Source of the DNA: an uncultured Gammaproteobacteria bacterium | GTDB lineage: Bacteria > Patescibacteriota > Patescibacteriia > Magasanikbacterales > UBA922 | Assembly: GCA_965231005.1 (NCBI GenBank) | Contig: OZ246405.1 | Span: 39,204 to 103,203 of the forward strand | DNA: 64,000 bases | Direction of reading: 5' to 3' | Shown here: piece by piece, positions 29,526 through 51,549 of the stretch | Layout: the number at the start of each line of letters is the position of its first letter | How positions within the stretch are numbered: position 1 is the first letter of the stretch | Program-made: the position numbers and the translations under genes | The notes under the pieces: generated by a model | Database searches by the model: none | Told to the model about the DNA's origin: nothing | Seen by the model: the letters and a program-made list of their open reading frames with translations, nothing else

Positions 29526-29621
29526 ATGAGACAACACACAAAAAAGGAGGAGCTCCCTGCTACCACGCGGGGTCTCACATAGGTACAGTTAATAAAAGTG
29601 TATCTGTGTGAGGAGGACACA

Positions 29622-30295: not shown

Positions 30296-30395
30296 TAAAC
30301 AACAAAGGCGCAACAACAAGGGGGTTTGTCCTGACACTGTCGGGACTCACCATCAACGTATATATAATTGTGCGTTCATGGTGGGAAGAACAATA

Positions 30396-30486
30396 TTAGT
30401 TACTAGATAATAGTTAATAGACAACTAGGCTGGAAACTTCTTACAAAGCACAATAAATAATAACTATTAGCTAATAGCTAATAAAC
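30396..30486. repeat. inverted pair TTAGTTACTAGATAATAGTTAATAGACAA ... ATAACTATTAGCTAATAGCTAATAAACT (inner arm of the TIR element family)
   Basis: 29/30 identity to 35252-35281; read directly. Confidence 0.55.
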
Positions 30487-34567: not shown

Positions 34568-35182
34568 TTACACTGTTGAGTTGACAATGACTTCTCCTTG
34601 TCGGAGAACGATCATTTCTCCATGTTCTATTTTAATAATAGTTGATGGACTTTGGTGAGGAAGCGTTCCTGCATCTATAAATATATCCGGTTGATTTTCT
34701 TCATCCTGAAACATGTTCAAAATACTTTCTGCATCATATGCACTTTCTTGTGCAGCAATATTTGCAGAAGTTGACACAAGTGGTTTTCCTAATTGCTCAG
34801 ACAATTCTGCAGCAAGAGAATGTGCTGTTACACGAAACGCAATTGTATTGTCTGAACCAAAAACACCTGAAACAAACGGATGTTCTGGTACAAGATCAAC
34901 CACAGCTGTAAGTGCTCCTGGCCAGTATCTATTTGCAATCGTTTCTAATGTTGGAGACCATTCAATGTGCTGCATAATCATATCAATGTCAGGAACAACA
35001 ACAAGTACTGGTTTATCTTTTTGACGTTTTTTAATATCAAATATTTTTTGAACAGCAACCTCGTTTGTTGCATCACAACCAAGCCCATAACATGTTTCTG
35101 TTGGATATACTATGACTGCACCATTACGCAATTCACTTGCAATCTCATTTATATCAATGTCCTCTTGTTTGATGACTTTCAT
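34568..35182 (-). CDS. tsaC: L-threonylcarbamoyladenylate synthase (YrdC/Sua5 family)
   Basis: VIVYPTETCYGLGCDATNEVAVQKIFDIKKR...KPV signature of the YrdC fold. Confidence 0.8.
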   Translation of the reverse strand: MKVIKQEDIDINEIASELRNGAVIVYPTETCYGLGCDATNEVAVQKIFDIKKRQKDKPVLVVVPDIDMIMQHIEWSPTLETIANRYWPGALTAVVDLVPEHPFVSGVFGSDNTIAFRVTAHSLAAELSEQLGKPLVSTSANIAAQESAYDAESILNMFQDEENQPDIFIDAGTLPHQSPSTIIKIEHGEMIVLRQGEVIVNSTV

Positions 35183-35190
35183 TCAAAATA

Positions 35191-35412
35191 ATTAGCAACT
35201 AACAATTAGCAATTAACAACTTAGTATAGGATGATTTTACAAGAAAGGAATTAGTTATTAGTTACTAGCTAATAGTTAATAGACAATATAAGAAAGATCT
35301 AAGCCTAATTTGCTAATAAATAGTAACTAATAGCTAATAACTATTAATTCCGATCTTATCTTAAAGAATCTTTCTATACAAGTTTGTTAATTGTTAGTTG
35401 TTAATTGTTTTT
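35191..35412. mobile_element. MITE-like nested inverted-repeat element: outer arms of TTGTTAA-type 7-mer arrays with a CTATACWAGTT core, inner arms TTAGTTACTAGCTAATAGTTAATAGACAA
   Basis: Left arm AATTAGCAACTAACAATTAGCAATTAACAACTTAGTATAG; right arm CTATACAAGTTTGTTAATTGTTAGTTGTTAATTG. Related copies at 45250-45433, 42964-43040 and 30396-30486. The right arm supplies the last codons (KKQLTTNN) of prfB. Confidence 0.5.
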
Positions 35413-36499
35413 TGTTATACCGAAGATATGCCTCAATAAGAGCATCAAGATTCCCGTCTAACACTTCATCTGGGTCCTGTGTTTCAAACTTTGAACGAAG
35501 ATCTTTTACCATTTTATATGGGTGAAGAACATATGATCTGATTTGATTTCCCCATTCTGCACTTTTGTACTCACCACGAAGTTCTTTTGTTTCTTTTGCC
35601 TCCTCTTCTTCGCGCAACGTTTCTAGTCTTGAATGAAGCACACGCATTGCTGTTTCTTTATTTTGTAATTGTGATCGTTCGTTTTGACATTGTACAGTAA
35701 TTCCTGTTGGAATGTGCACAATCCGTACAGCTGAGTATGTTGTGTTCACACTTTGACCGCCTTTTCCTCCAGACATAAATGTATCGATGCGTAAATCTTT
35801 TGGATCAATCTCTATATTCTCATTATGCGCTATTTCTGGAATAACTTCAATTGATGCAAATGATGTATGTCGCATTTTTTCTGCATCAAATGGTGAAATC
35901 CGTACAAGCCGATGCGTTCCATGTTCTGATTTGAGATGGCCAAATGCATATCTTCCTTCTACACGAAATGTTGCTGACTTTATCCCTGCCTCTTGTCCAC
36001 GCGATTCATCTAACATTTCTGTTTTCCACTCCTTCTTTTCACAATAACGAAATACCATGCGTTGTAGCATTTCTGCCCAGTCTTGCGCTTCTGTTCCTCC
36101 ACTTCCTGCATGAATTGAGACGATTGCATTTTTTGCATCATGTTTTCCAGAAAGGAGTAAATAAAATTCAAGTTTTTCAAATTCTGTTTCTAACTCGCCA
36201 ATTCGTTTTACAACACCCTCTTGCATTTCTTCATCTGGATTTTTTTCTAAATCCTTTGCAAGACTTAACAGTTCTTCTACTTCTTCTTTCATCTTTGTCC
36301 ATGTTTCAATTTCTTTTCTATATTCTTCGTGTTGCTGAGAAACATTTTTTGCATTGCCTTGATCATTCCAAAAATCTGGATCCTGCATTTCTTTTTCCAT
36401 GCCATGCATGTGCGCAATCATATCATCAATATCAAGAAGCGCCCATGTGTCTACAATACGCTTTTGTAATGCTTGAAGTTGTTTTATGTAATCTTTCAT
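35387..36499 (-). CDS. prfB: peptide chain release factor 2
   Basis: GGQ motif (SGGKGGQSVNTT) and RF2-specific SPF motif (RISPFD); one uninterrupted ORF with no programmed frameshift. Confidence 0.85.
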   Translation of the reverse strand: MKDYIKQLQALQKRIVDTWALLDIDDMIAHMHGMEKEMQDPDFWNDQGNAKNVSQQHEEYRKEIETWTKMKEEVEELLSLAKDLEKNPDEEMQEGVVKRIGELETEFEKLEFYLLLSGKHDAKNAIVSIHAGSGGTEAQDWAEMLQRMVFRYCEKKEWKTEMLDESRGQEAGIKSATFRVEGRYAFGHLKSEHGTHRLVRISPFDAEKMRHTSFASIEVIPEIAHNENIEIDPKDLRIDTFMSGGKGGQSVNTTYSAVRIVHIPTGITVQCQNERSQLQNKETAMRVLHSRLETLREEEEAKETKELRGEYKSAEWGNQIRSYVLHPYKMVKDLRSKFETQDPDEVLDGNLDALIEAYLRYNKKQLTTNN

Positions 36500-36502
36500 G
36501 TA

Positions 36503-36841
36503 TTAAAATAATTTCTGTCCATTTTCTACTTCTCGTTCTGGCTGAGTCAACACAATACGACCTTCTTTATCTGCAAATCCAGTTATTAAACATTCAGAAA
36601 CAAATGGTCCAATCTGTTTTGGTGCAAAATTTACAACACCCACAACTTGTTTTCCGAGTAGTTCTTCTTTTGTATACAAATCTGTAATCTGCGCTGATGA
36701 CTTTTTTATTCCTATTTCACTACCAAAATCAACCTGCAATTTATATGCAGGCTTTCGTGCTTCTGGAAAATCTTTAACATCAATGATTGTTCCAACACGT
36801 ATGTCTACTTTTTCAAAATCATTGTAAGAGATAACGTTCAT
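36503..36841 (-). CDS. tRNA-binding protein (CsaA/YgjH-like EMAP/Myf domain)
   Basis: 112 aa; VDIRVGTIIDV...LQVDFG...VVGVVNFAPKQIGPFVSE pattern of the tRNA-binding OB fold. Confidence 0.65.
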   Translation of the reverse strand: MNVISYNDFEKVDIRVGTIIDVKDFPEARKPAYKLQVDFGSEIGIKKSSAQITDLYTKEELLGKQVVGVVNFAPKQIGPFVSECLITGFADKEGRIVLTQPEREVENGQKLF

Positions 36842-36848
36842 AACACTA

Positions 36849-37724
36849 TTAATTGACGCTAAATGTTTTCAGCACAACTCGAAGACTATCTCTCAAAGAA
36901 GAATCAAACTGCCAGCGATAAAACGTATCATCATGTTTTGCAATCATTACAGTTTTTTTCTTATCATATAATAATTGACCTCCAGCATTATTCGCAAAGA
37001 CTAAACTTTTTTCTGCTGTAAATCCATACCATGTAATGCCATTGACATTCTCGGTAAATATTGGTGAAACGACTGCTTTAGCATTTACATCGGGATCATT
37101 CTTATTATCATCCCACCATTTTTTTACAAAAGCCTCGGCAGATAGGTCTTCCAATCCTCTAATTTCAGGATGAACCTCTGGATCGTTCATTGCACTTAAA
37201 TTAGCTCTCATATTATTAGGAAAAACAACAGAAAGTTCTATTGCCTCATCAGGATCTATTGGGTATATGACAACGTCTGTATCAACTTTCACACCAATAG
37301 GAGTGACAAAAGAATATCCAAATGCATTATTTTTATATGTTACTCCTTTCTGGACTTTGTGAACAACTTGATTTGTATCATTTTTTACGTCATCTTTTTC
37401 TTCGATGATAGACTCTACAACAGATTCAGAAATATGAAGTGTTACCTCAGCATCACCTCGCAAAAATGCTCTGTAAAAATATACAGGAACGGCTAGGACA
37501 AGAAAAATTGTTGCAACAAGTCCAATTTCCCCTCTCCTCTTAGGCCCTTCTTTGTAAAAGAAAATGATTGATCCAATAGAACCAAGGAAAAGCCAAACAA
37601 AAAACCAAACCGTTCCACTATGTTTAAGATCGTTTCTCCTGATAATAGATAATAGCATCAATGCCCACAAAATAAGATTGACACCTAATGCTACAAAAAT
37701 TAGTACTGAGATAATTGTTTGCAT
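36849..37724 (-). CDS. hypothetical membrane protein
   Basis: Three N-terminal TM helices, then a soluble domain. Confidence 0.45.
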   Translation of the reverse strand: MQTIISVLIFVALGVNLILWALMLLSIIRRNDLKHSGTVWFFVWLFLGSIGSIIFFYKEGPKRRGEIGLVATIFLVLAVPVYFYRAFLRGDAEVTLHISESVVESIIEEKDDVKNDTNQVVHKVQKGVTYKNNAFGYSFVTPIGVKVDTDVVIYPIDPDEAIELSVVFPNNMRANLSAMNDPEVHPEIRGLEDLSAEAFVKKWWDDNKNDPDVNAKAVVSPIFTENVNGITWYGFTAEKSLVFANNAGGQLLYDKKKTVMIAKHDDTFYRWQFDSSLRDSLRVVLKTFSVN

Positions 37725-37802
37725 AAAAAATACAAGCTTAGTAGGAATCTACTATACAGAAAATTTAGCAAATCATCAACTTTCTGACCTATTAAAACAA
37801 GA

Positions 37803-37832
37803 CTTTTTTTCAAGCCTTGTTTTCTTTTAATT
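37803..37832 (-). terminator. AAAACAAG...CTTGTTTT hairpin (conserved terminator motif, copy 3) downstream of groEL
   Basis: Same stem as at 1420 and 3185. Confidence 0.45.
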
Positions 37833-37843
37833 GTTCTTTATCT

Positions 37844-39484
<1,641 letters not shown>

Positions 39485-39499
39485 TTATGTTAAATACTA

Positions 39500-39790
39500 T
39501 TATGAAAGAATTGCTAACACTTTATCTTGTGAAACAATTTTATAATCTTCTCCATTTACTTTTACTTCTTCTCCTCCCCATTTTTCAAATAATACTTTGT
39601 CTCCAACAGAAACTTCCATTTGACTTCTTGTACCAGATTCAAGAACCTTTCCTGGTCCAACAGCTACAATTTCTCCTTCTGCTTTTTTTTCTTTATCAAC
39701 TGTATCTGGAAGAACAATTCCAGAAGCAGTCACTTCTTCCTCTTGTAGAGGTTTAATAACAACGCGATCACCAAGTGGTTTGATATTCAT
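39500..39790 (-). CDS. groS: co-chaperonin GroES
   Basis: Starts MNIKPLGDRVVIKP (internal Met of track ORF 39500-39832); 96 aa. Confidence 0.9.
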   Translation of the reverse strand: MNIKPLGDRVVIKPLQEEEVTASGIVLPDTVDKEKKAEGEIVAVGPGKVLESGTRSQMEVSVGDKVLFEKWGGEEVKVNGEDYKIVSQDKVLAILS

Positions 39791-39821
39791 AATAATATAA
39801 ATATAAATAATAGATGAAATT

Positions 39822-39848
39822 CTGTCACTCATGACTATTGAGTGATAA
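39822..39848. promoter_or_regulatory. CIRCE-like inverted repeat (tgtCACTC-N9-GAGTGata) in the groES leader
   Basis: CACTC at 39826-39830 and GAGTG at 39840-39844 with a 9-nt spacer, matching the core of TTAGCACTC-N9-GAGTGCTAA. Confidence 0.4.
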
Positions 39849-39892
39849 ATAGTATGCTTATCTTACACTAAATAAAAAATGTGTCAAGATTA

Positions 39893-40054
39893 TAAAAGGC
39901 CATAAAAGCCTAAAAAGCTAAAAAGGCCTTAAAGGCCCGGACAATACATCTCTTCTTTTTTAGTGCTTTTTTGTCTTATTTAAGCAAAAAATCAAGTTTT
40001 TAATCCTAAGCATTTAGAGCATTTATGGCCTTTACGGCATTTAAAGCCTTTTAT
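39893..40054. repeat. inverted pair of 9-bp periodic arrays (AAAAGGCCAT AAAAGCCTA AAAAGCTA AAAAGGCCTT AAAGGCCC ... TAAGCATTT AGAGCATTT ATGGCCTTT ACGGCATTT AAAGCCTTT)
   Basis: Left array 39893-39947 in reverse orientation, right array 40006-40054 forward, ~60-bp core between. Confidence 0.6.
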
Positions 40055-40264
40055 TAAAAAAAGCCCACAAAAGGCTACACACTCAACGCACCGACAAGAT
40101 ATGAAACCGTGATGCCTGTCGTAACACGGTTTCGACTTGCGAATACTTGTGTATATAGCCAATTGTAAGCTCTTCCTTTGGTGTATGTACTTTCTCATGA
40201 ATACGAAGAGGTGTCAACCTTGAAAATTTGGCTAATTTAGGACAAATTGTGAACAAAAAGTGGA

Positions 40265-41556
40265 TTAGGTGTGCACAAGTTGGGGAAGCATTCTTATAAC
40301 AATCCCCCAGTAAATGGCTGATAGCATAAGACCAATATATGAAGAAAATAGATAATGATCAAATGTACCTAAAACAAGGTAAATGATAGCAAAAAGAAAA
40401 ATCTCTTTTGAAAAACCTGATAAAGAAAGCCACGAATATATAACTCCACACAAAAGAACAATACCAATCACACCGACTTCTGCTAATAAGAGAAATCCAA
40501 CATTATGAACTGGTTGGTATGCCCAACCAGGCAATCCAGGATGATTTATCGCGAGGGCCAAAGAATAGTTCCCTATTCCAACACCGACTAATGGATTATT
40601 TTTTATCAATGCAAAAGATTCTTCATAACCAGAAATTCTTTCTTCCACTGATTTTATTTCTAAACGCGAATCAGGAAAAAATCTTGTTTGTACAATTGGA
40701 AGATACAAAAGGGTAAGAATAACGAACACTCCAACTCCAATAATAATTGGACGTAAGAATTTTTTCCCATACATGATTAGCAACCCCACAAAGCAAACAA
40801 GAAGTGCGAGCCATGCAGAACGACTGAACGTGAAAAATAATGATATCAATAATATGAAATAACAAATATTGGATAATAAATGATTTTTCTTGTTTTTAAG
40901 AAACATGAGTAAGAAAAGTATAATTGCAATAACTAAAAAACCACCAAACACATTTGGATGAGTAAATCCTCCATACGCACGCAACACTCTACCAATTGCA
41001 TTTCCTGCTACCACAGCCGTTCCTGGTTCAGCAACAACATGAGATGATGTCCCAAGTATTGTCGAAACAAATGTTGACTGGGAAATAAACTGCCAAATAC
41101 CAAGAACACCTTGCACAACTGCACCAAACACAAACCATCTCATAATCTTTTGAAGATCAATTGGTCCAATCAACAGAAAAAGAAACAATAATGCTGCTTC
41201 CATAATACGAAGTGCTTGTTGTTGTGCGACATCTACATTTATTGACCAAAATACAGAAAAGAAAATATATAATAAAAAAATAAAAACACTCAATATAAAC
41301 ATTCTATCCTTTGTCAGATAAAATTCATTCTTTCTTATTTGAGAACCTCTCTTCTTCCAATACCAAAAAAAGAAAAAAACTAATAACATCCATAACAAAA
41401 ACTCTGTTGCATAAAATCCAAGTGTTGCATACTCCAGCTTTGCTCCATTCAAAATATATTCATTGTATATCCAAATCGTATGCCATGGGAGAAGGAAGAC
41501 AAATAGATTGATGGACCACTGTAATAAAGTTTCTATTGAAATTTTTCTTTTGTTTA
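40265..41556 (-). CDS. O-antigen ligase/polymerase-like (Wzy_C family) polytopic membrane protein
   Basis: ~10 TM helices with a large periplasmic loop. Start placed at MNIINKRK (ATG at 41556), which is preceded by a GAGGTT SD-like sequence. Confidence 0.5.
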
Positions 41557-41685
41557 TAATATTCATATTAACTATAACCTCATTATACACCAAAAAAAGA
41601 GGTGATTGACAATAAAAATTAGCAATGCAATAATGAAAAAGCACTGGGGAATTCTGCCTCAGCAGCCACATCAAGGAGCAACATC

Positions 41686-41934
41686 ATGAGCACAGACGGA
41701 CTTGGCGTTTCATTCAACATCAACAAAACAGTCTGGTTCAAGCCCACAGAGCGCGGGTTGGCTGTGATGAGAGAAACCGTGCATGCTCAAAGGGCAGCAA
41801 AGGTAACTCAGAGGAAGCCATGGTGCAGTCTCAACTTTTGCGTCTTCGCAAAGATCTTCGGCCCACACTTGGGCTCTGGCTACTCGATGGTGTACGATGG
41901 CCAAATCCTTCTGACTGAGCCACCAAGGAACTAG
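41686..41934 (+). CDS. hypothetical small protein in a GC-rich (~52%) mini-island
   Basis: Strong RBS AAGGAGcaacatcATG; followed by the hairpin GGAAAGTC-acac-GACTTTCC plus a T-rich run. The opposite-strand ORF 41710-42006 was rejected. Confidence 0.4.
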   Translation: MSTDGLGVSFNINKTVWFKPTERGLAVMRETVHAQRAAKVTQRKPWCSLNFCVFAKIFGPHLGSGYSMVYDGQILLTEPPRN

Positions 41935-41977
41935 CGCAGCCGCACACTTCACAAACCGAATAAGGGGGACGGGAAAG

Positions 41978-42982
41978 TCACACGACTTTCCTTTCTTCTT
42001 TTCCAATCCTTGTCATCCACTCCTGCTTAAAATACTCTCTTCTATCATTGTCATGAAATTTTAACATTTCATCACTAACAATCACATCTGTTTTGTGAGA
42101 GTCAAAATCAATATTCTTTTCTTTTAATTTTTTCAATTGAATATTCCTCAACATTCTTTCTAGTGAATCTCCAATGCTTCCACTGAGCAATGTTTCAAAA
42201 ACTCGTTGAAAGGTATTTGTAAAAACATTGTGTGAAACCTTCCACAAACCAAGCGGATTAAATGCTTCTGATGTATTTGGAAGATACTTTTTTGTCCAAG
42301 CATTTTTCTCTTTTATGACTTGCGAAACATTTGACGGATCAAAAACAGGAATAAGTTGTTCAAGCCAATATGTTAGATAAATATCAGGCTGCTCAATTGC
42401 AACAGAAGAGAGATCAAGATGACTTTCTCCTGCATAAAAACTAAGACAAATTTTATCTTTACTTTGTAAGGTTGTAATGCGTAATTTAAAAAAATGAAAA
42501 AGTAAAATAATAAAAAAACGAGCAAACCACATACGTCCATCTTTTATAACAATAAATGTATCAATATCACTCTCCTCTTTTGTTGAAATAGTGAACTGGT
42601 TGCAAACAAAAAATGCACGAACAAATGGAATAAACCGGATGATCTTTGCTGCACGCTTTGCAATCTTCATTTTTCGACGTAACAGCGAAGGCATGGATTT
42701 ACGGTTTTGAATCGTAGAACTTTGTTGAGGCAAAAAATAAAAACTTTCTTGTCTTTCAATTCTTCCAGACAACACCTCACTATCGAGCATATCCAAAAAA
42801 GCAACATACGAAATTTCCTGATTGCTACCCCACTGCCACTCGTAAAGCTCTTGGGCAGTCAATGGATAATCAAATATGCCAAAGTAAGCAATTGTTTTTG
42901 TAATTGATTCACTCATAGTATCTATAGTGTAACCCAGATCGGTTGTTATGTCACCTATAAAAAAACAACTAACAATTAACAA
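41978..42982 (-). CDS. hypothetical protein
   Basis: 334-aa ORF; possible true start at MSESITK (42913); no motif recognised. Confidence 0.4.
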   Translation of the reverse strand: MLIVSCFFIGDITTDLGYTIDTMSESITKTIAYFGIFDYPLTAQELYEWQWGSNQEISYVAFLDMLDSEVLSGRIERQESFYFLPQQSSTIQNRKSMPSLLRRKMKIAKRAAKIIRFIPFVRAFFVCNQFTISTKEESDIDTFIVIKDGRMWFARFFIILLFHFFKLRITTLQSKDKICLSFYAGESHLDLSSVAIEQPDIYLTYWLEQLIPVFDPSNVSQVIKEKNAWTKKYLPNTSEAFNPLGLWKVSHNVFTNTFQRVFETLLSGSIGDSLERMLRNIQLKKLKEKNIDFDSHKTDVIVSDEMLKFHDNDRREYFKQEWMTRIGKEERKVV

Positions 42983-43040
42983 CTAACAACCTATCTAGGA
43001 ATTGTTAATTGTTAATTGCTAGTTGTTAATTGTTGTTAAT
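42964..43040. repeat. compact inverted pair of TTGTTAA-type arrays (AACAACTAACAATTAACAACTAACAACC tatctaggaa TTGTTAATTGTTAATTGCTAGTTGTTAATTGTTGTTAATC)
   Basis: Read directly; overlaps the yidC stop. Confidence 0.55.
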
Positions 43041-43797
43041 CAACCAACGTTCCTTCAATCACTCCACCACTTTTTCCAGAACCATCATCTTTATTTTTCT
43101 TTCGAAACATCACCCATTGTTGTACACCAGTCAATAGTGTTGAAAGGAACCAGTAAAGCGCAAGCCCCCCTGGGAAACTCAATCCAATGAATACTGTCAT
43201 CACTGGCATAAAGTAAAGCATTTGCTTATTCATCATACTCATCATATTCTCATCCTTTCCACCTTCACCAGCTTCTTTTGGAGGTTTTCTACTTTGCATC
43301 ATTTTTGCCTGCCAATATTGAGCACCACCAGCAAGAACTGCAAGCACAGGACTTGTCTTACTTAAATCAAAAAGACCAAATGATATTGGATTTATATTTC
43401 CAGGACTTGGAACAAATGAATAGAGCAAACTAAAATCAGTTGATGAAAGAGTCTCTCGTAACACCCAATACAGCGCAAGAAATACTGGTAATTGGATAAG
43501 AATTGGCAAACAAGAACCAAGTGGGTTTACCTTGTGCTCTTTATATAACGCCATTGTTTCCTTTGCCATTGCTTGCTGATCATCTTTGTATTTCTTTTTC
43601 AATGCCTCCATTTTTGGTTGAAGATCTGCCAAAGACTTCTGAGCAGCAATTGATTTTTTAGTCAAAGGATACAATGCCAATTTAATCAAAACTGTTAATA
43701 CAAGAATAACAACACCTACGTCCAAGAAGATATTGTAAAAGCCAACAAAAAAGTTAAATATTGGCTGATAAAGGATAAGTTCAAATAATGCTTTCAT
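43036..43797 (-). CDS. yidC: membrane protein insertase YidC (short form)
   Basis: LYPLTKKS...MQ..QPKM..L...YK.........MALYKEHKVNPLGSCLPILIQLPVF signature of YidC/Oxa1. Confidence 0.8.
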   Translation of the reverse strand: MKALFELILYQPIFNFFVGFYNIFLDVGVVILVLTVLIKLALYPLTKKSIAAQKSLADLQPKMEALKKKYKDDQQAMAKETMALYKEHKVNPLGSCLPILIQLPVFLALYWVLRETLSSTDFSLLYSFVPSPGNINPISFGLFDLSKTSPVLAVLAGGAQYWQAKMMQSRKPPKEAGEGGKDENMMSMMNKQMLYFMPVMTVFIGLSFPGGLALYWFLSTLLTGVQQWVMFRKKNKDDGSGKSGGVIEGTLVD

Positions 43798-43882
43798 AGT
43801 GGAACGAGTATATCACAGGTGTGTAAAAAGCTCAACGCCCCGTGTTTGCTTCGCAAACCGGGGCGCTGTTCAAAAATCCTAA

Positions 43883-45241
43883 TTATTTTGATTCTTCAGC
43901 TGAATCCTCTTCAGATTCTTCTTTTGCATCAGTTGGCTCTTCCTCAACTGATTCTTCTTTTTCTTTATCTTCTTCTGAGTCAGGTGCATCTTCTTGTGAT
44001 TCATCTTTGCTTTCTTCTACAACTTCTTCTTTTTCTTCTGATGCTTCTTTCTTTTCATCTTCTGAAATATCTTCGTCTTCGCTGCTGACTACTTTTTCTT
44101 CTCCACCTTCTTGTACAACATCAATCTTCCATTCAGTAAGAGATGCTGCAAGACGAACATTTTGACCATTTCGACCAATCGCAAGTGAAAACTGATCTTC
44201 AGCAACAAACACTTTTGCTTCTTTTGTTTCTTCGTCTAATTCAACACGATCAACTTTTGCTGGAGAAAGAGAATTTTTAATAAATTCTTGTGCATCTTCA
44301 CTCCATGAAATCACATCAATTTTTTCTCCACCAAGTTCAGCAATAATAGTTGTAATTCTACTTCCACGTTGTCCAATACATGAACCAATTGGATCAATAG
44401 ATTCGTCGTCTGTAGATACAGCAACTTTAGAACGTTGTCCTGGATCACGAGCAATACCTTTGATAACAACTGAACCAGATGCAATTTCTGGAATTTCTTG
44501 TTCAAAGACTGCTTCAATCATCTTTTTACTAGATCGAGAAAGTAAAATTTCTGGACCACGTTTTCCCATTTCAACAGAAATAATATAAAATTGTGTTCGC
44601 ATTCCTGGACGCAAAAATTCACCTTGTACTTGTTCTTCTGGTGAAAGAATACCAGTAATTTTTCCTAAATCAACAAGTGTATTTCCACTTCTGTCACGAC
44701 GTTGAATTGTTCCTTGAACAATTTGTCCTTGTTGATCTTTGAAATCTTCAAATACACTGTTACGTTCAGCCTCACGAACTTTTTGAATAATAACTTGCTT
44801 TGCCGTTTGAGCTGCCATACGACCAAAGTCTCCAGGCACATCAAGATCAATGCGAAGTGTTTCACCAATCTTTGCACTTTTTTTATGTTCCTTTGCTTCT
44901 GTAATCATCATTTCTGTTTTTGGATTGAAGTGAGGAATACCTTCCACTTCTTCTTCGGTGATATCTCGCCCTTCTTTTCGTGCTTCTTCACGAAGATCAG
45001 CAAGTTGTTCTTGTGCTTTTTCCAAAACGTCTTCATCAATGTCTTCGACAACAACTTTTTCATCCCACACTTCCATATCTCCAGTTTCAGAGTCAAATTT
45101 TACTTGTACGTTTTGTTGACGATTTCCAAAATCTTTTCTGTATGCTGCAGCAAGCGCGATTTCAAGCGCTTCCATGACAACATCAACATCAAGTCCTTTT
45201 TCGTCAGACAGAAACTTGATTGCTTTTGTAATATCTGAGGC
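43883..45241 (-). CDS. nusA: transcription termination/antitermination factor NusA with acidic C-terminal tail
   Basis: S1 and tandem KH domains; start at MASDITK (track ORF extended 9 codons upstream); Glu/Ser/Asp-rich tail. Confidence 0.85.
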   Translation of the reverse strand, partial: ASDITKAIKFLSDEKGLDVDVVMEALEIALAAAYRKDFGNRQQNVQVKFDSETGDMEVWDEKVVVEDIDEDVLEKAQEQLADLREEARKEGRDITEEEVEGIPHFNPKTEMMITEAKEHKKSAKIGETLRIDLDVPGDFGRMAAQTAKQVIIQKVREAERNSVFEDFKDQQGQIVQGTIQRRDRSGNTLVDLGKITGILSPEEQVQGEFLRPGMRTQFYIISVEMGKRGPEILLSRSSKKMIEAVFEQEIPEIASGSVVIKGIARDPGQRSKVAVSTDDESIDPIGSCIGQRGSRITTIIAELGGEKIDVISWSEDAQEFIKNSLSPAKVDRVELDEETKEAKVFVAEDQFSLAIGRNGQNVRLAASLTEWKIDVVQEGGEEKVVSSEDEDISEDEKKEASEEKEEVVEESKDESQEDAPDSEEDKEKEESVEEEPTDAKEESEEDSAEESK

Positions 45242-45249
45242 CATAAATA

Positions 45250-45433
45250 AATAATTAACAATTAACAACTAACAATTAACAAATTTAATAGGGAAAGAAT
45301 ATTTAATACGAGTACGAGAACGATATCACTATCTATTATCTAATATAGAGAATAAATCAGATAAGACTGACGTCCTTTTCTAACAAAGCCTTTCTATACT
45401 AAGTTGCTAATTGTTAATTGCTAATTGTTTTTT
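45250..45433. mobile_element. MITE-like inverted-repeat element (TTGTTAA-array arms with a CTATACTAAGTTG core)
   Basis: Left TAATTAACAATTAACAACTAACAATTAACAAATTT; right CTTTCTATACTAAGTTGCTAATTGTTAATTGCTAATTG. The right-arm core is near-identical to 35371-35400. Confidence 0.5.
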
Positions 45434-45510
45434 GATTAAAGAAAAGCAGCTTTAGTAAGCTACTTTATTGTTAATATAATACCATATTATGTACGTTTTG
45501 TCAATAGCAA

Positions 45511-45897
45511 TTACTCAACTGGGATAATATAATGCCTAATTATAGGCGATTTATCATAAAAATCTACATACACACCAATATGTTCAAATTGAATTGGTGT
45601 ATCTTCAATGTTTATCCCTTTTATTATGCAATACTCCTGAGCTGTTCGTTTAAGACGGAGAATCTTCTGCCTTCCAGTTGCTCGCTCAGCACTCCCAACC
45701 TGTCCATTTCTTGTTTTGACTTCAATAAAGCAGAGTGTTTTTTGGCCACGTTTTGTATGCCAAGCAATAATATCAATCTCTCCTCTTCGTGTTTGAAAAT
45801 TTTTTTCAAGGATGCTGTAGCCTTCCTTTTGTAAAAAAAGAACGCTTTGCTGCTCCCCCCACGCACCAAGACGTTTCTTTTTGTTCCCTCCTTTCAT
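45511..45897 (-). CDS. YraN-family (UPF0102) endonuclease
   Basis: GAWGEQQSVLFLQKEGYSILEKNF..GEIDIIA......FIEVKTR pattern. Confidence 0.75.
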   Translation of the reverse strand: MKGGNKKKRLGAWGEQQSVLFLQKEGYSILEKNFQTRRGEIDIIAWHTKRGQKTLCFIEVKTRNGQVGSAERATGRQKILRLKRTAQEYCIIKGINIEDTPIQFEHIGVYVDFYDKSPIIRHYIIPVE

Positions 45898-45908
45898 ATT
45901 TTAAAATG

Positions 45909-48827
45909 TTATTGACATGAGCCATTTATACAACTCTTTCCAGCAGCACATCCATCAATACAAAGCTGTGAACAAACACCTGCTGCAGATCCTGTGTAAT
46001 TCTTAATTGCGCGACAAAGTGTTCGTTCATTTCCTAATCCATACACTCTTGACTTTTCTGTAATCTTATTAAATGAATGCATGAATTTTTTTGAAATATC
46101 CATAACAGATATTCTTGTTGCTTTCAAAAGATTTGCAGAACCAGTATTTGAATGCGTTCCTCCACCAAAGTTACATCCAACTTCCTGATCAAAACCAGGA
46201 TCATTGAATGAACAATCCAATACACCATCTTTTCCACAGCCATTTCCAATTAAATCTGACCAAGAAGATTGTGAACATGCATTTGCTGGTGCATCATCAC
46301 ATACAATCTCGTTTACAAAATGTCCGCCTCCACTATATTTAAATTGTTTACAATAATTATCAAGATCGAGTGAAGAAGAGTGATATGTGTTTGGTCGAAA
46401 GTTTGGGGTATAACTCATTTTATTTTCCTTTACATATTCATCTACATTGAATAAATCGAAAGTATCAACGTATTCTTCACCTAAAAATCCAAGTTCATGG
46501 CCTAATTCATGAAGAACAACACGTCCTACTTGAAATTCTTTGAAACAAGTTGGAGCTGTTTTTGAAGCAAGACAATTCTTGAGTGGTTGACTTGCAATGC
46601 CAAATGTTACACCCTTGTTAAACGTACACTGTCCACTGACTGCTCTTGTCTGTACCTGTGTCAGTGAGTCATCATCAATCATTGCATAGAAAATTGTTTT
46701 TCCTTTGAAATTATGGCTCAAATACATTTCCTGACTCTTGGAAAGTTTTTCCCAGCCAAAAAAGATACTACTAAAATTCCCAAACTCCCATGTCGCTTCG
46801 TCGACTGTGAGTTTAGTATTGTACTTCCAAAAATTAAACTTATTCTTATTTGATTTTATTGGTTCAACATTTAGCAAGCTCAATTTTGCATCTGTTGTAA
46901 CGTATGAAAGGATTTGTTGGAACAAATTATCATCAAAACCAATATTTAAAAATACAATATTAACCCTGTTTTCATTTGAATTATTCTGCCCTTGCAGGAC
47001 TGGTGAAAATGTTCCTACGTTCATTGCAGGATAGACAAGGACATTTCCTCTGTACCGCCAACTGTCAAACTTTTCTACATCTGGATGATTCACTGGTGTT
47101 AATCCCCATCCAACATATGATGGATAAAAATCATATGTTTGTTTTGTTCCATTATTATTTGTAACAGTAAATGTAAAGTAAAAATAATATGCACCTTCGT
47201 CCAGTGTATATTTAAACGAATGGATCTGACCAATCTTAATATTGTTTAATGTTTGTTCATAGTAAAAATTCTCATCTGCAAATTTTGTTAAGCCAGCGGG
47301 GACTTCTGTTCCATTAGCAGCCGTTGGCTGATCCACAATCTTCATCGTTAGATCAATCTGTTTACTATTTGCAAGAATATCGTCTCTTACAATAGGAGTA
47401 AATGGCAAAATAATTTCACGACCTGCCACTTCGTACTGTGACCAATATGTTCCATTTGTATCAACCCGAGCTGGGAGCCTATTTTGTTGTGCAGCACTGC
47501 TTGGACTTTTCTTGAACGACTGTAGTGAATAAAGAGAAAGTGTTGTGTCTTGAACTAAATTACAATACCTATTTGGAATAAATTTTGTTATGTAGCCTGG
47601 TGCAGACGCAACAATAGTATGAATCTCGCTTTTTAATAAATTCCCATCCAACACAGCTTTCCCCTGACTGTTAGTTTTTGCAGTCATTTCAATATTTGAA
47701 TTTCCAAATGCAATATTAAATGGTGTTACATGCAATGGATCCATTTCACTATCGCGTCCATATACAGTTACAAGCGCATTTGAAACAGGTTGACCATTTG
47801 ATACAACTGTTATTGTTCTATTTGTCCACGGACAGCCCGTCTGATTCACAACAAACTGTTGATTGCTAGTCTGCTTTGTTCGTGTATCTTTAATTTGAAT
47901 TGTTGGTTGTGGTGTATCTACTTTGGTTGGTGGAGAAATTGTTTGTGTTGTCTGCGGCTTTTGCACCACACTTTTGTCTGCTGTGTTCGTAGATTTTTTA
48001 GCAGGAGTATTTTTGACCTGCGGTGTAGATTTTTGGACAACCGGCTGTTTTTTGACAACAGTCTTTTGTATTGGCTGAACCGTCTTTTGTGCAGGCTGTG
48101 TTGTTTTTACAAAACTTGAACCACCAGATCCAGTGTTATATTGTTCTGTCTTATCAATTACAACAATACGATCCCAACGAAACCCAAAAGAATTAAATTC
48201 TTTTTCATCTTTAATATGTTTTTTAATTTGTTTTGATGCATCTGTTGGATCTGGTTCAAGGCGATACACATCTGCAGAGTCAGGATATTTTACAATTGTA
48301 TAATTTGGATGACGATTCGTATAATTAATTTCTGAACCAGTAAAGTAATTATTTAATAATCTCTGATCAATATCCTCAATCCAATTCCATGAATATCCTA
48401 ATTTGTTAAATACTGACTCATCAGTAATCCAATATTTTTCATTTCCCAAAAGAAGATATACTTTTGGGTCATCAACCGTTTTTACAAGTGCCCCATATTT
48501 TGGATCATACAATGGCCCGGCCGGCATAAATCCTAGATGATCTTTTGGAATAGAAGCAAGCTCATAAGATGAAACGTGTGTGACTTCATTCCAAGAATAA
48601 AAATATGTGAAGTATTTCTTTGCTGAGCGGAATGGACGCTTTGTACATTGTTTTGTTATGTAATAGACTGCACTGCTATTTGGCGCCTTATATGCATTTT
48701 GCTCTGGCAATGGGCAGCCAACAGCTTGTGTTGATTGAAAAAAATACCCAAAAAACAAAAAAAGGCCTGAAGTAAAAAGAAGCCAATAAAAATATACTAT
48801 TTTTTTGCTTAAATTAGTCAAAAACAT
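45909..48827 (-). CDS. secreted large protein with a peptidase M64 (IgA-peptidase-like) zinc-binding motif, Thr/Pro/Gln-rich linker and Cys-rich C-terminus
   Basis: Signal/TM at the N-terminus; HELGHELGFLGEEY matches the M64 HExxH...DEY signature; 972 aa. Confidence 0.5.
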   Translation of the reverse strand: MFLTNLSKKIVYFYWLLFTSGLFLFFGYFFQSTQAVGCPLPEQNAYKAPNSSAVYYITKQCTKRPFRSAKKYFTYFYSWNEVTHVSSYELASIPKDHLGFMPAGPLYDPKYGALVKTVDDPKVYLLLGNEKYWITDESVFNKLGYSWNWIEDIDQRLLNNYFTGSEINYTNRHPNYTIVKYPDSADVYRLEPDPTDASKQIKKHIKDEKEFNSFGFRWDRIVVIDKTEQYNTGSGGSSFVKTTQPAQKTVQPIQKTVVKKQPVVQKSTPQVKNTPAKKSTNTADKSVVQKPQTTQTISPPTKVDTPQPTIQIKDTRTKQTSNQQFVVNQTGCPWTNRTITVVSNGQPVSNALVTVYGRDSEMDPLHVTPFNIAFGNSNIEMTAKTNSQGKAVLDGNLLKSEIHTIVASAPGYITKFIPNRYCNLVQDTTLSLYSLQSFKKSPSSAAQQNRLPARVDTNGTYWSQYEVAGREIILPFTPIVRDDILANSKQIDLTMKIVDQPTAANGTEVPAGLTKFADENFYYEQTLNNIKIGQIHSFKYTLDEGAYYFYFTFTVTNNNGTKQTYDFYPSYVGWGLTPVNHPDVEKFDSWRYRGNVLVYPAMNVGTFSPVLQGQNNSNENRVNIVFLNIGFDDNLFQQILSYVTTDAKLSLLNVEPIKSNKNKFNFWKYNTKLTVDEATWEFGNFSSIFFGWEKLSKSQEMYLSHNFKGKTIFYAMIDDDSLTQVQTRAVSGQCTFNKGVTFGIASQPLKNCLASKTAPTCFKEFQVGRVVLHELGHELGFLGEEYVDTFDLFNVDEYVKENKMSYTPNFRPNTYHSSSLDLDNYCKQFKYSGGGHFVNEIVCDDAPANACSQSSWSDLIGNGCGKDGVLDCSFNDPGFDQEVGCNFGGGTHSNTGSANLLKATRISVMDISKKFMHSFNKITEKSRVYGLGNERTLCRAIKNYTGSAAGVCSQLCIDGCAAGKSCINGSCQ

Positions 48828-48837
48828 ATGAAAATCA

Positions 48838-48887
48838 AGCTTTTATGGCCTTCATAGCTTTTAAAGCCTTTACGGCCTTTTTACGAT
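48838..48887. repeat. 9-bp periodic array (AAGCTTTT ATGGCCTTC ATAGCTTTT AAAGCCTTT ACGGCCTTTTT)
   Basis: Read directly. Confidence 0.6.
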
Positions 48888-49432
48888 TGCTTGAACAATA
48901 CCAGCCCTTTATGAAATTGTCCAACTGGGAACTCCTCTTGCAATACAAATCCGTGTGTTGTTGCCCATTTCTTAATATCTTCAAAATCAATAAAATGTTC
49001 GTCTGATGGTCCAAAAGTTAATCCTTTTTTTGACCAATCAACAATAATGAGACGGGCTTTATCTTTTAGTAAACGATGCGTTTCATCTAAGACTGCATGT
49101 CTATCTTTTGACTGAACCAATGTATTTACAAGAAAACCAACATCAAGACTATTTGCTGGAATAGCAGTCTTTCCTGTCCGTTCTAAATCTGCCCAGATGG
49201 TTTGAATATTATTTAACTTACTTAGCTCTGCACGTTTATGAACTATCTCGAGCACTGATTTCATAATATCAATCCCATACATAATGCCATGATCACCTAA
49301 AATATTTGCCGCAGGAAAAAGAATATGTCCAGTTTTTCCACATCCAAAATCTGCAACATGCATGCCTGGCTGAAGCTGTGCTTTTTCAAAAAGCAAGTGT
49401 GGATCTACCATTTGATTCCCACTGTGATACAT
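48881..49432 (-). CDS. class I SAM-dependent methyltransferase
   Basis: VADFGCGKTG motif I. Confidence 0.65.
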   Translation of the reverse strand: MYHSGNQMVDPHLLFEKAQLQPGMHVADFGCGKTGHILFPAANILGDHGIMYGIDIMKSVLEIVHKRAELSKLNNIQTIWADLERTGKTAIPANSLDVGFLVNTLVQSKDRHAVLDETHRLLKDKARLIIVDWSKKGLTFGPSDEHFIDFEDIKKWATTHGFVLQEEFPVGQFHKGLVLFKQS

Positions 49433-49441
49433 AATGCAAAA

Positions 49442-49681
49442 TTAATTTTGAATGCCAAACATACGACCAAATACATTTAAAATCAATGGTCCTAATAGCC
49501 CTGTCATACCCATCATGGCAACGAAAATAAAAACAATGCCTAGTACTTTATAAAAAAAACGGGATCCACCAAAATGCTGCTCAGCCCAGTCACTTCTCCC
49601 AAACATTTGCAATACCCATTCTGTTTTTAACACCATAAAAACTCCGACTGCAATAGCTAATAAACCTACAAAATATTTCAT
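49442..49681 (-). CDS. small membrane protein (79 aa)
   Basis: Two TM helices. Confidence 0.4.
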   Translation of the reverse strand: MKYFVGLLAIAVGVFMVLKTEWVLQMFGRSDWAEQHFGGSRFFYKVLGIVFIFVAMMGMTGLLGPLILNVFGRMFGIQN

Positions 49682-49714
49682 ACAATATTATTTTAAACAC
49701 TACTAGTATACTTC

Positions 49715-49768
49715 AAAAGGCTAAAAAGGTCTAAAAAGTGAAAAGGCAAAAAGGTCTTTTAGACCTTC
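49715..49768. repeat. 9-bp periodic array, reverse orientation, ending in the hairpin AAGGTC-tttta-GACCTT
   Basis: AAAAGGCTA AAAAGGTCT AAAAAGTGA AAAGGCAAA AAGGTCTTTTAGACCTT. Confidence 0.55.
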
Positions 49769-49799
49769 TCGCTTTCAAAAATCTAATAACTAATAGCTA

Positions 49800-50084
49800 T
49801 TAACTAGTAACTAATGGCATCAACTCACCCTTTGCATGAAGTGCTGCCAAGTCATCATATCCACCAATAAACTTTTCTCCAATAAAAATCAACGGTACGG
49901 TCATATGACCAGTTTCTTTAATTAGTTTGTCACGAACATCTGGGTTTGCTTGCACATCGGTATCTTCAAATGGAATGTTCAGTGATGCAAAAAGTTCTTT
50001 TGCTCTGTGACAGTACGGGCAATATGGTGTTGTATATATTTTTACTTGTTTCATATTGTAGATTTCTAGGTACGGATTTTCCAT
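49800..50084 (-). CDS. glutaredoxin-family protein
   Basis: CPYC active-site motif (YTTPYCPYCHRAKELF). Confidence 0.7.
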   Translation of the reverse strand: MENPYLEIYNMKQVKIYTTPYCPYCHRAKELFASLNIPFEDTDVQANPDVRDKLIKETGHMTVPLIFIGEKFIGGYDDLAALHAKGELMPLVTS

Positions 50085-50827
50085 CCGATTTTAAATAAAT
50101 ACCAGACAAGAGAACCAAGGACAATAATTGATCCAAAAATCACTGCAAGCCCAATAGTAAAGCTACCTTCTTGGATCCCAATCATAGAATACCGTAATCC
50201 ATCAACAAAGTAGAAGAACGGATTAAATTTTACAAATATCTGTGCTTTTTCTGGCAACATGGTGATTGAATTAAACACGCCGCCCAAAAACGTAAGTGGT
50301 GTTATGATGAATGTGTTTAAAAGTGCAAGTTGTTCAAAACCATCTGACCAAAGACCAATAAGCAATCCAATAAGAGAAAAAATAAGTGCAACAGAAATAC
50401 TATAAAAAAGAAATAACCCAAGGTTTGCCATGTTTGCTGCACTAAATAAAATAGCAATAATATAGACACCAAATCCAACAATTAATCCACGCGTCACACC
50501 GCCAATCACATATCCCAAAACAATTTCCAAATGAGAAAGTGGTGCAACTAATACTTCTTCGATGTGCTTTGCAAAACGCTGAAAGTACAAAGACGAAGAT
50601 GTTTGAGAATACGTTGAAGAAATAAGATTTAACATGACAATTCCTGGAAGGACAAAGTCAATGTAACTCACACCAACAATGAGATCAATGCGTGAACCAA
50701 CAATATATCCAAATACTAAAATGTATAAAAGCGCATTAATCCATGGACTCACAAGTGTTTGTGTACCAACACGAAGAAAGCGCTGCACTTCTTTATAAAC
50801 ATGTGTTTGTAATCCTATAACATTCAT
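50066..50827 (-). CDS. ABC-2 type transporter permease
   Basis: Six TM helices; overlaps the ATPase gene stop. Confidence 0.7.
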   Translation of the reverse strand: MNVIGLQTHVYKEVQRFLRVGTQTLVSPWINALLYILVFGYIVGSRIDLIVGVSYIDFVLPGIVMLNLISSTYSQTSSSLYFQRFAKHIEEVLVAPLSHLEIVLGYVIGGVTRGLIVGFGVYIIAILFSAANMANLGLFLFYSISVALIFSLIGLLIGLWSDGFEQLALLNTFIITPLTFLGGVFNSITMLPEKAQIFVKFNPFFYFVDGLRYSMIGIQEGSFTIGLAVIFGSIIVLGSLVWYLFKIGWKIRT

Positions 50828-51546: not shown

Positions 51547-51549
51547 AAT

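Follow-up and report, generated by a model that had tools for sequence, protein, structure and literature searches.

Three homologous hairpin loci, termed class A here, lie on the minus strand within this 64-kb window (the whole stretch of DNA analyzed): A1 at 35185 to 35416, A2 at 45246 to 45438, and A3 at 42957 to 43035. The initial annotation had proposed three copies at these places, and all are present, with coordinates that differ by a few bases. The arms of the elements are inverted arrays of TTGYTAR heptamers. Indeed, TRF finds period-7 arrays in every class A arm, as had been described, and the 20-mer pattern TTGYTARTTGYTARTTGYTA has nine matches, confined to the six class A arms, versus none in 100 shuffles. 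Alignment shows that the six arms fit one plan, in which an A-run is followed by three to four CAAYTAR units and then by CAACTTAGTATAG. The arrays are mosaics of four unit variants only, so arm identity by itself argues only weakly for copying. Because stops occur in all six frames of each array, the reading frame of the upstream gene ends immediately on entering one. No ORF of at least 20 aa is found inside the class A cores, consistent with their earlier description as lacking one.

A1 is a quasi-palindrome of about 230 nt that takes up the entire prfB-sua5 spacer. It is built in three layers, with heptamer arms, a stem in the middle, and, nested within, a hairpin of a second family, class B. 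The inverted-repeat arms span 35185 to 35249 and 35354 to 35416. The 5' arm (35365 to 35416) runs from AAAAAA through CAAYTAR heptamers to CAAACTTGTATAG, whereas the 3' arm (35185 to 35229) opens with CTATACTAAGTT and continues in TTGYTAR heptamers, ending about 2 to 7 nt before the sua5 ATG (35182), the distance varying with the extent of the A/U-rich tail that is included. The predicted RNA fold has an energy of -62.9 kcal/mol (z of -6.75 versus shuffles). The last five codons of prfB (LTTNN) and its TAA stop (35387 to 35389) are supplied by the 5' arm; in the relative L128, the end of prfB read from the DNA is KKEQS followed by a stop. The arms had been thought to donate C-terminal codons to both prfB and yidC. 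This holds for prfB, but yidC retains its native C terminus (LVD) and owes nothing to the array except its TAA stop.

A2 occupies the nusA 5' leader, from a conserved leader hairpin to the nusA ATG (45244). Its arms (45246 to 45290 and 45391 to 45438; inverted repeat 45243 to 45285 with 45401 to 45438) enclose some 100 nt of core, and the predicted RNA fold is -50.7 kcal/mol (z of -5.81 versus shuffles). It is inserted downstream of the nusA promoter (TTGACA-17-TATTAT) and a small leader hairpin with a U-run (45443 to 45504, minus strand), both homologous in the relatives L005, L128, and L130. A3 consists of arms without a core and begins at the yidC stop codon (43036 to 43038). Its A/U-rich stem of 26 to 31 bp (42964 to 43027; arms 42964 to 42989 and 43002 to 43027) has a 12-nt loop and is followed by U7 (42957 to 42963), and the predicted RNA fold reaches -35.6 kcal/mol (z of -9.06 versus shuffles). 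A terminator scan marked A3 as terminator-like; its stem is G+C-poor, with 7 such pairs out of 29, and in this differs from efficient intrinsic terminators. Across the window, 3' arms end 3 to 10 nt 5' of start codons (those of sua5, nusA, a DHH-family gene, and others), at which no Shine-Dalgarno motif is visible.

The homology between copies extends past the heptamers. The near-identical core proposed for 35371 to 35400 and 45391 to 45420 was recovered as 86.7% identity over 45 nt (35370 to 35414 versus 45390 to 45434), and CTATACTAAGTT occurs exactly at both 35218 to 35229 in A1 and 45394 to 45405 in A2. A1 and A2 can be aligned at both ends, over about 75 nt (5') and about 45 nt (3'), including nonperiodic sequence, and the homology runs about 25 nt beyond the arms. 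The nesting suggested for A1 is likewise present: a class B copy with TAGTTAA/CTAATAA-type arms (35252 to 35343, minus strand; inner arms 35252 to 35287 and 35308 to 35343) forms the hairpin at its tip. Class B, defined by TAGTTAA-type arms, also has a stand-alone copy on the plus strand (30394 to 30483), which ends 4 nt 5' of the ATG of the DHH-family gene (30488); its positions 30394 to 30424 match 35256 to 35286 of the nested copy at 30 of 31 bases. A partial copy, a single-arm remnant (49783 to 49815, minus strand), follows a glutaredoxin gene and is itself followed by 9-mer repeats of the AAAGGC type. Both had been noted earlier as relatives of the inner arms.

At least four further palindromic repeat families occupy other intergenic gaps of the window, and several of them are mutually nested. 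Family C has 9-mer AAAGGCnnn arms, and its hairpin at 51549 to 51667 (minus strand) spans another stop-to-start gap; related copies lie at 39892 to 40054, 60246 to 60369, 5466 to 5508, 48837 to 48881, and 53585 to 53616. Family D, with AAATTAG heptamer arms (52402 to 52648, minus strand; related copy at 18391 to 18514), contains two more nested hairpins, the innermost being a G+C-rich palindrome (52500 to 52520), and has a predicted RNA fold of -96.1 kcal/mol (z of -10.33). A 35-nt block around the G+C-rich palindrome is identical between copies. Of the 34 intergenic gaps that reach 40 nt, 16 fold at a z of -4 or below; these include the two gaps with RNase P RNA and with tRNA-Leu, as well as several in which an ordinary G+C-rich terminator lies.

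We compared the loci with those of three syntenic relatives, whose NusA is 79 to 82% identical. Class A elements are missing at the orthologous sites. The prfB and sua5 genes overlap by 4 nt in the P0002 genome and are 1 nt apart in L128. At the A2 site, the relatives have only 12 to 68 nt; in L128, 12 nt separate the nusA leader hairpin from the ATG, and the L005 nusA leader is ordinary. After yidC, the relatives have short, conventional, G+C-rich terminators, as seen in L128 (short) and L005 (G+C-rich). None of the array types of the window is present in 64 kb of the relatives' syntenic DNA. Hairpins with periodic arms do occur in a further relative, L130, but their repeat units are different. 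Conservation at orthologous sites had been proposed as the way to tell a regulatory palindrome from a mobile element, and the empty sites favor gain or mobility, indicating at the level of sequence comparison that class A elements are lineage-specific gains and not conserved regulators. The alternative reading of the elements as terminators fits the short copy A3, whose place is taken in the relatives by a conventional terminator, but A3 is not conserved as such in them.

These observations point, with a probability that we put at roughly 60%, to a lineage-specific family of small noncoding palindromic dispersed repeats with inverted TTGYTAR heptamer arms that arose or spread within one uncultured Candidatus Magasanikbacteria (CPR) lineage, where the class A copies stand between essential genes. 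The elements had been called MITE-like. They are indeed small and noncoding, with inverted arms, homologous copies are present at several loci that are not related, and one family is nested in another, but no flanking target-site duplication exceeds that of random position pairs, and a Pfam scan of the roughly 50 window ORFs identified no transposase, RAYT, or TnpA-like gene, so that membership among classical MITEs is unproven. The inverted arms need not come from an insertion sequence, since TTGYTAR arms are ordinary heptamer simple-sequence repeats found intergenically in many phyla. Further, the clustering of the three known copies within 10 kb is also compatible with local duplication. 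A family-specific 19-mer had no true match in JGI metagenomes.

Arrays could instead have grown in place without mobility, each from a local seed by polymerase slippage, with template switching of the kind seen in quasi-palindrome correction making the inverted copy; the loci would then be alike through a common mutational bias or a common binding factor favoring one unit. Heptamers are the most overrepresented long simple repeats in bacteria, with slippage proposed as the cause (PMC4679880, PMC4692102), and TTGYTAR also forms plain tandem arrays, some of them in inverted pairs, in at least 120 stretches belonging to cyanobacteria, Acidobacteriota, Bacteroidota, Planctomycetota, and CPR. The missing duplications and transposase, the different units of the L130 hairpins, and the native prfB end of L128 (aagaaggaacaatcataa), which resembles the A-run and CAAT opening the A1 arm, are also in line with growth in place. 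However, the copies have nonperiodic sequence in common that slippage could not produce independently: A1 and A2 share CAACTTAGTATAGAAAG and about 25 further nucleotides, the nested and stand-alone class B copies share the 31-mer TATTAGTTACTAGMTAATAGTTAATAGACAA, and the 35-nt block around the G+C-rich palindrome is identical. Entire blocks of 190 to 230 bp are missing in the relatives, and intermediate arrays are not seen. We therefore regard independent growth in place as unlikely.

A more doubtful explanation is that the arrays are functional RNA or DNA binding sites for a host protein that binds single strands, such as S1 or a cold-shock protein, and that they control translation initiation at genes lacking a Shine-Dalgarno sequence, with the hairpin hiding or exposing the site. 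The position of the 3' arms just before such start codons would agree with this, and for TAACTGA heptamer repeats the same placement has been described and the same idea put forward (PMC4679880). None of the 134 TTGYTAR arrays from other phyla is coding; about 24, in CAAYTAR-sense orientation, have 2 to 16 nt after them an ATG that begins an ORF of 80 aa or more, a raw, uncontrolled count. The window arrays beside start codons, however, read TTGYTAR in sense, opposite to the orientation enriched in those phyla. In a compact genome any intergenic insertion adjoins a stop and a start, so placement is uninformative; moreover, the relatives express the same genes without arrays, and no candidate binding protein was identified.

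A role as conserved cis-regulatory RNAs (leader, attenuator, or riboswitch), or as small RNA genes, belonging to nusA and prfB is largely refuted and very improbable. Strong hairpins do stand at 5' leader or intergenic positions, and nusA leaders are sites of autoregulation in some bacteria. But three or four relatives lack the elements at these sites and conserve a different small U-run hairpin in the nusA leader; the copies adjoin unrelated genes, and an Rfam search of the elements returned only a chance match to a plant microRNA precursor (E of 0.2). Among 11 elements, fold energy is better in sense for six and in antisense for four, with one tie; this lack of a consistent sense-strand preference gives no sign of selection on the RNA and also counts against the dispersed-repeat reading. 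Chimeric fold-back joins made in metagenome assembly are hardly credible: short Logan contigs end precisely at arm boundaries (45282, 43003, and 35219), but repeated k-mers would give such breaks, the arms, unlike those of fold-back chimeras, contain imperfections, the genes on either side are complete and keep their synteny with the relatives, and a pair of independent ENA assemblies, made from two runs, match the window at 100% identity over 37137 to 54476 and 40416 to 53890, through A2, A3, and families C and D.

If the elements are dispersed repeats gained in this lineage, they may have been copied by trans-mobilization through an enzyme encoded outside the window, or by recombination or template switching between hairpins, with the arms then lengthened and homogenized by polymerase slippage. 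On this reading, they lodged in the narrow spaces that separate one gene's stop codon from the start codon that follows, and they are probably cotranscribed with their neighbors. Each would then fold back into a long A/U-rich hairpin that brings its two flanks together, and so would do little harm inside an operon or 5' leader. A3 with its U7 may now serve as a Rho-independent-type yidC terminator in place of the conventional one of the relatives. In the prfB-sua5 copy, ribosomes terminating in the 5' arm would be expected to unwind the base of the stem, which could release the sua5 start region beside the 3' arm and keep prfB and sua5 translationally coupled.

The elements resemble known small repeat elements of bacteria, and we see in them a modest comparative-genomics find and no new kind of system. 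Like the Correia elements of Neisseria (CREE/NEMIS) and similar MITEs (ERIC, RPE), they are 100 to 230 bp long with inverted ends, are intergenic and often beside start codons, are present or absent between related genomes, and have transcripts predicted to fold into long hairpins. Correia elements have defined 26-bp inverted ends, a TA target duplication, and more than 100 copies, whereas the window elements have no detectable duplication, ends that are simple repeats, and three known copies in 64 kb. Correia hairpin transcripts are cut by RNase III (PMC10969869). REP/REPIN sequences, thought to move as hairpins, are also palindromic intergenic repeats without target duplications and occur as inverted pairs, but REPs are 20 to 40 nt long, number hundreds, and have a RAYT gene in the genome (PMC3116915), which the window lacks; a REP-like look is limited to the 20-nt palindrome CCTGCCTGCCGGCAGGCAGG, with three copies.

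For the arms, the closest comparisons are heptamer repeats. Xanthomonas has convergent inverted pairs of intergenic GGGAATC arrays, variable in length and mostly transcribed, in which two opposed 7-nt arrays lie close together and can form a stem-loop (PMC4692102). Their unit is G-rich and quadruplex-prone, with no shared nonrepeat core reported (PMC4692102), whereas the window unit is A/T-rich and the elements are not positionally conserved and have a core common to copies. The TAACTGA direct repeats of Beggiatoaceae, cyanobacteria, and Bacteroidetes (PMC4679880), like long simple-sequence and cyanobacterial heptamers, share the 7-nt unit with stops in every frame. They too are intergenic, overlap the upstream stop, end a few nucleotides before a start codon without a Shine-Dalgarno sequence, and are spread patchily over phyla where TTGYTAR arrays occur, but they are direct in all but a single case and have neither hairpin nor shared core. 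The pneumococcal BOX, RUP, and SPRITE elements are unrelated in sequence, and the window elements differ from them in their tandem heptamer arms and CPR host. Both, however, are short noncoding intergenic hairpin repeats that cluster and insert into each other (PMC10969869), with probable cotranscription with neighboring genes in the window as well, and SPRITE shares with A3 the look of a Rho-independent terminator.

Homologues of NusA place the window in Candidatus Magasanikbacteria (CPR/Patescibacteria). The sequence is 100% identical to two independent ENA metagenome assemblies (PRJEB17505) at 37137-54476 and 40416-53890, and an assembly artefact was rejected on this basis. Inside a gene for a 1742-aa DUF5667-family protein, a 165-bp tandem duplication at 53784-54055 is present in the window and in assembly L001 and collapsed in assembly L002; either this coding repeat is polymorphic in length or assembly has merged its copies. 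Because almost every gene is on the minus strand, the elements are written here in minus-strand orientation. The genes near them are sua5/tsaC (34568-35182), prfB (35387-36499), a gene for a 312-aa protein (41978-42916), yidC (43036-43797), nusA (43883-45244), and a UPF0102 gene (45511-45897).

The initial annotation had proposed MITE-like elements with TTGTTAA-type heptamer arrays and a conserved core. The three loci that it described are confirmed, and all are inverted repeats with period-7 arrays as arms. These class A elements lie between prfB and sua5 (A1, 35185-35416), in the nusA leader (A2, 45246-45438), and after yidC (A3, 42957-43035). They measure 79 to 232 bp, within the limit of about 600 bp used for MITEs, and end in inverted arms of 26 to 63 nt that are 73 to 92% complementary. 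TRF analysis yields a period of 7 with 3.9 to 5 copies per arm, and each locus is an intergenic pair of convergent arrays. The motif TTGYTARTTGYTARTTGYTA has nine matches in the window, all within the six class A arms, and none in shuffled sequence; a looser 13-mer pattern has 24 matches, compared with 7.9 expected. Alignment of the six arms reveals a common plan, consisting of an A-run, three to four CAAYTAR units, CAA, and the nonperiodic CTTAGTATAG(A/G)AAG. Between A1 and A2 the alignment continues for about 25 nt past this last block, and the other end is alignable for about 45 nt, such that CAACTTAGTATAGAAAG and about 25 more nonperiodic nucleotides are common to both; A3 consists of arms only, with a 12-nt loop. 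As single strands, A1, A2, and A3 fold at -62.9, -50.7, and -35.6 kcal/mol (z = -6.75, -5.81, and -9.06, respectively).

A1 had also been described as doubly nested, and its outer heptamer arms, middle stem, and inner TAGTTAA-type hairpin were all found. The inner hairpin belongs to a second family (class B), as positions 35256-35286 in the tip of A1 match a stand-alone copy at 30394-30424 in 30 of 31 positions. For the right arms of these two copies the figure is 23 of 25, and a single arm occurs at 49783-49815. Class A elements have a stop codon in every one of the six frames. The arms had been thought to donate C-terminal codons to both prfB and yidC. For prfB this is the case, as its product gains LTTNN where the DNA of a related species (L128) reads ...KKEQS*; YidC keeps its native ...LVD end, and the array supplies the stop codon only.

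Most informative was a comparison of the loci with those of three syntenic relatives, namely, L005-L007 (NusA 82% identical), contig P0002 (80%; gene table only), and L128/L129 (79%), the last from the same project as the window and a different species. The comparison is thus one between species, not strains. The elements are missing at all three L128 sites, at two L005 sites, and at the P0002 prfB-sua5 junction, and the array types of the window were found nowhere in 64 kb of the relatives' loci. The copies are therefore lineage-specific gains rather than conserved regulators, and the conservation at orthologous positions that would have favored a regulatory role over mobility is absent. At the prfB-sua5 junction, P0002 has a 4-nt gene overlap and L128 a 1-nt gap; in the window a 204-bp spacer, all of it A1, separates them.

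In all four Magasanikbacteria genomes compared, the nusA leader has kept a promoter resembling TTGACA-17-TATAAT, followed by a small hairpin and a U-run. The hairpin, which is probably a leader terminator or attenuator, lies 12 nt from the nusA ATG in L128, about 45 nt in L005, and about 68 nt in the more distant L130; A2 is inserted into this interval in the window. Promoter, hairpin (gtagcttaNaaaagctgc), and U-run occupy 45443-45504 (minus strand) in the window, 9890-9957 in L005, 9909-9990 in L128, and 9891-9960 in L130. L130, whose NusA is 71% identical, has periodic-armed hairpins of its own at 3889-4008, 7240-7305, and 12598-12699. These arms repeat other units, ACGAAAnn among them, so the habit may recur in the clade with lineage-specific units.

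In L005 and L128, yidC is followed by a short hairpin that is rich in G+C and carries a U-run, and then by a TACACT box that is conserved and resembles a -10 element. In the window, A3 and a U7 run occupy the exact equivalent place, followed by GTGACA-17-TACACT. The A3 hairpin (43027-42964) starts at the yidC stop codon and leads directly into the U7 run, giving the stem-loop and U-run of an intrinsic terminator. Only 7 of its 29 stem pairs are G-C, so it lacks the G+C-rich stem of that class. The position of A3 is equivalent to that of the relatives' terminator. A3 would be expected to terminate yidC transcription, and this copy is best classed as one co-opted as a terminator-like structure.

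The class A copies are homologous, were gained relative to their kin, and have strong fold-back potential. Of the known classes, that of heptamer simple repeats accounts for the arms. Heptamer repeats are overrepresented among bacterial simple repeats, and Xanthomonas has 70 to 75 convergent inverted pairs of them (PMC4692102). The class A arms are head-to-tail repeats, longer than expected by chance, of a unit within the 5- to 11-nt range and do belong to this class. Plain heptamer arrays consist of repeat units only, whereas A1 and A2 share a unique core; what is added here is this nonrepeat core and the apparent dispersal of the element as a block.

The TTGYTAR unit itself is common: with each species represented by one genome, at least 120 stretches contain such arrays, and nearly all of those listed are plain, unrelated arrays. 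The listed hosts are mostly cyanobacteria, Acidobacteriota, and Bacteroidota, with some Planctomycetota and CPR; the listed arrays have 3 to 34 units, all lie outside long open reading frames (ORFs), and most are in a single orientation. None of the 134 arrays listed from many phyla (L008-L127) is coding. About 24 of these 134 have an ATG 2 to 16 nt downstream, at the start of an ORF of 80 aa or more, with CAAYTAR in sense, a raw count without a matched control. This placement recalls the TAACTGA repeats reported directly upstream of start codons without a Shine-Dalgarno sequence, which carry stops in all frames (PMC4679880). A few of the listed arrays form inverted pairs, and a convergent TTGYTAR arrangement occurs in three stretches (L100, L076, and L030). 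The Saprospiraceae stretch L100 has a hairpin that begins at a stop codon and is followed by T8, as A3 is designed, and the inverted arrays of L076 and L030 flank spacers. In L030, from a Stigonema metagenome-assembled genome, two AGTTGTT arrays in inverted orientation (6036-6529), one with 13 and the other with 16 units, are separated by about 290 bp. The ORF directly downstream, with MSMVTLSGLKELIES... as its start, looks NusA-like by eye, which would be the gene neighborhood of A2; this may be a coincidence.

The MITE reading proposed at the outset stands in part. Small size, absence of coding capacity, inverted ends, homologous copies, nesting, and presence or absence between species all speak for it, and against it no target-site duplication was found. 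With 12 nt of slack at both ends, the search gave nothing above a control of random position pairs, which commonly have direct repeats of 4 to 6 nt: A1 has none, A2 has 4-mers only, and the 7-mer at A3 belongs to the array itself. Three class A and three class B copies were found, all at 30 to 50 kb of the window and those of class A within 10 kb. No transposase or RAYT-type (Y1) domain occurs among the approximately 50 ORFs of the 64-kb window. In REP/REPIN systems, a RAYT (Y1 transposase) gene in the genome accompanies hundreds of short palindromes. A search of JGI metagenomes with a family-specific 19-mer gave no true match, the one hit being a chance match in an unrelated A/T-rich contig. 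MITE membership is thus unproven, and the behavior, whole-block gain at unrelated sites, is MITE-like.

Fold energies compared for G-U versus A-C asymmetry gave no consistent bias toward the sense strand, so there is no evidence of RNA-level selection and a neutral, selfish reading is adequate. A conserved regulatory RNA was rejected, as no Rfam match passes the gathering or E-value thresholds, those seen are at chance level, and the elements lack a counterpart in the relatives. A hidden small ORF (none of at least 20 aa in the class A cores) was likewise discarded, and an internal promoter found no support (no site with at least 9 of 12 consensus matches on the gene strand of A1 or A2, the overall count equaling the shuffle expectation).

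Palindromic repeats in the window extend beyond classes A and B. There are 34 intergenic gaps that are 40 nt or longer, and 16 of them fold at z ≤ -4; two of the 16 contain the RNase P RNA and a tRNA-Leu, and several have conventional G+C-rich terminators only. The RNase P RNA (14272-14668, plus strand) is of class A in the RNase P sense and scores 151.5 bits; the tRNA-Leu(GAG) (18198-18284, minus strand) is preceded by an AAATTAG-type hairpin and a copy of a G+C-rich palindrome. Three further families are present. The first comprises 9-mer AAAGGC/AAAGCC-type hairpins and arrays at 51549-51667, 39892-40054, 60246-60369, 5466-5508, 48837-48881, 53585-53616, 28702-28737, and 49715-49754, which often fill the space between a stop codon and the next ATG, leaving no more than 3 nt before the latter. 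The second consists of AAATTAG-type hairpins at 52402-52648 (z = -10.3) and 18391-18514. The third is a perfect 20-nt G+C-rich palindrome, CCTGCCTGCCGGCAGGCAGG, with three copies (17303-17323, 18321-18341, and 52500-52520) in a genome of 36% G+C; a 35-nt block around it is identical between 17296-17330 and 18314-18348, and one copy is the exact center of the large hairpin, itself nested, at 52402-52648. In appearance, this palindrome resembles the small dispersed sequences of REP type. A 286-nt intergenic region at 8056-8341 (minus strand; -118.6 kcal/mol, z = -9.2) has long, nested stems of the GTCATTGCGAGAAGC...GACGAAGCAATC type, distinct from the heptamer families.

A 1.6-kb segment on the opposite strand (28790-30390, plus strand) has a raised G+C content of 43 to 50% and its own TTGACA/TACAAT promoter. 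Its ORFs are small and hydrophobic, each preceded by a strong AAGGGGG(T/G)AACC-ATG ribosome site, and it has no match in Pfam or Rfam. In a relative, the syntenic interval between the ValRS and DHH genes contains just one gene, of 87 aa, and the segment was probably acquired horizontally.

Overall, the elements fit best within the broad class of small palindromic repeats found between genes, as new members restricted to this lineage with arms of heptamer simple repeats. Class A elements would be cotranscribed with their neighbors, since A1 is internal to an operon and the conserved nusA promoter precedes A2. A self-folding insert would hold its flanks adjacent and so be tolerated. The prfB stop lies about 25 nt into the 5' arm of A1 and the sua5 ATG a few nucleotides past the 3' arm; given these positions, terminating ribosomes would melt the base of the stem and expose the sua5 start. 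Such melting would preserve the prfB-sua5 coupling that relatives obtain by overlap.

The several repeat-armed palindrome families of this streamlined genome may need no dedicated transposase to spread: a hairpin may, for example, serve as the template for a copy that enters the tip or base of another hairpin already in place. They could be retained for function as well, closing the upstream gene in any frame and then folding away, and their unwinding by terminating ribosomes may couple or gate translation of a Shine-Dalgarno-less downstream gene. That transposase-free spread and retained function combine into a self-installing operon punctuation module is a long shot, to which we assign a probability of roughly 0.1.

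CPR genomes are very small, tightly packed, and usually called poor in selfish DNA. Here, one Magasanikbacteria lineage gained several nested palindromic repeat families that its closest sequenced relatives are without, at delicate sites: between genes that overlap in relatives, in the nusA leader, and at the position expected for a terminator. This provides a clean natural before-and-after comparison of the tolerance of such elements, of terminator replacement, and of protein extension by a few codons, and it joins two poorly understood phenomena, overrepresented heptamer repeats and MITE-like palindromes. In practice, short-read assemblies of such genomes are interrupted at these repeats, which can also mislead gene callers to extended starts, as in a mechanical ORF list where a TTG-start nusA ORF (43883-45268) runs into the arm.

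The logic of such a punctuation module would be akin to that of the unexplained arrays of TAACTGA and other heptamers at start codons in cyanobacteria, Bacteroidota, and Beggiatoaceae. Members of one family repeatedly sit in the tip of a hairpin of another in the window, much as the BOX, RUP, and SPRITE elements of pneumococci occur in clusters and within each other (PMC10969869).
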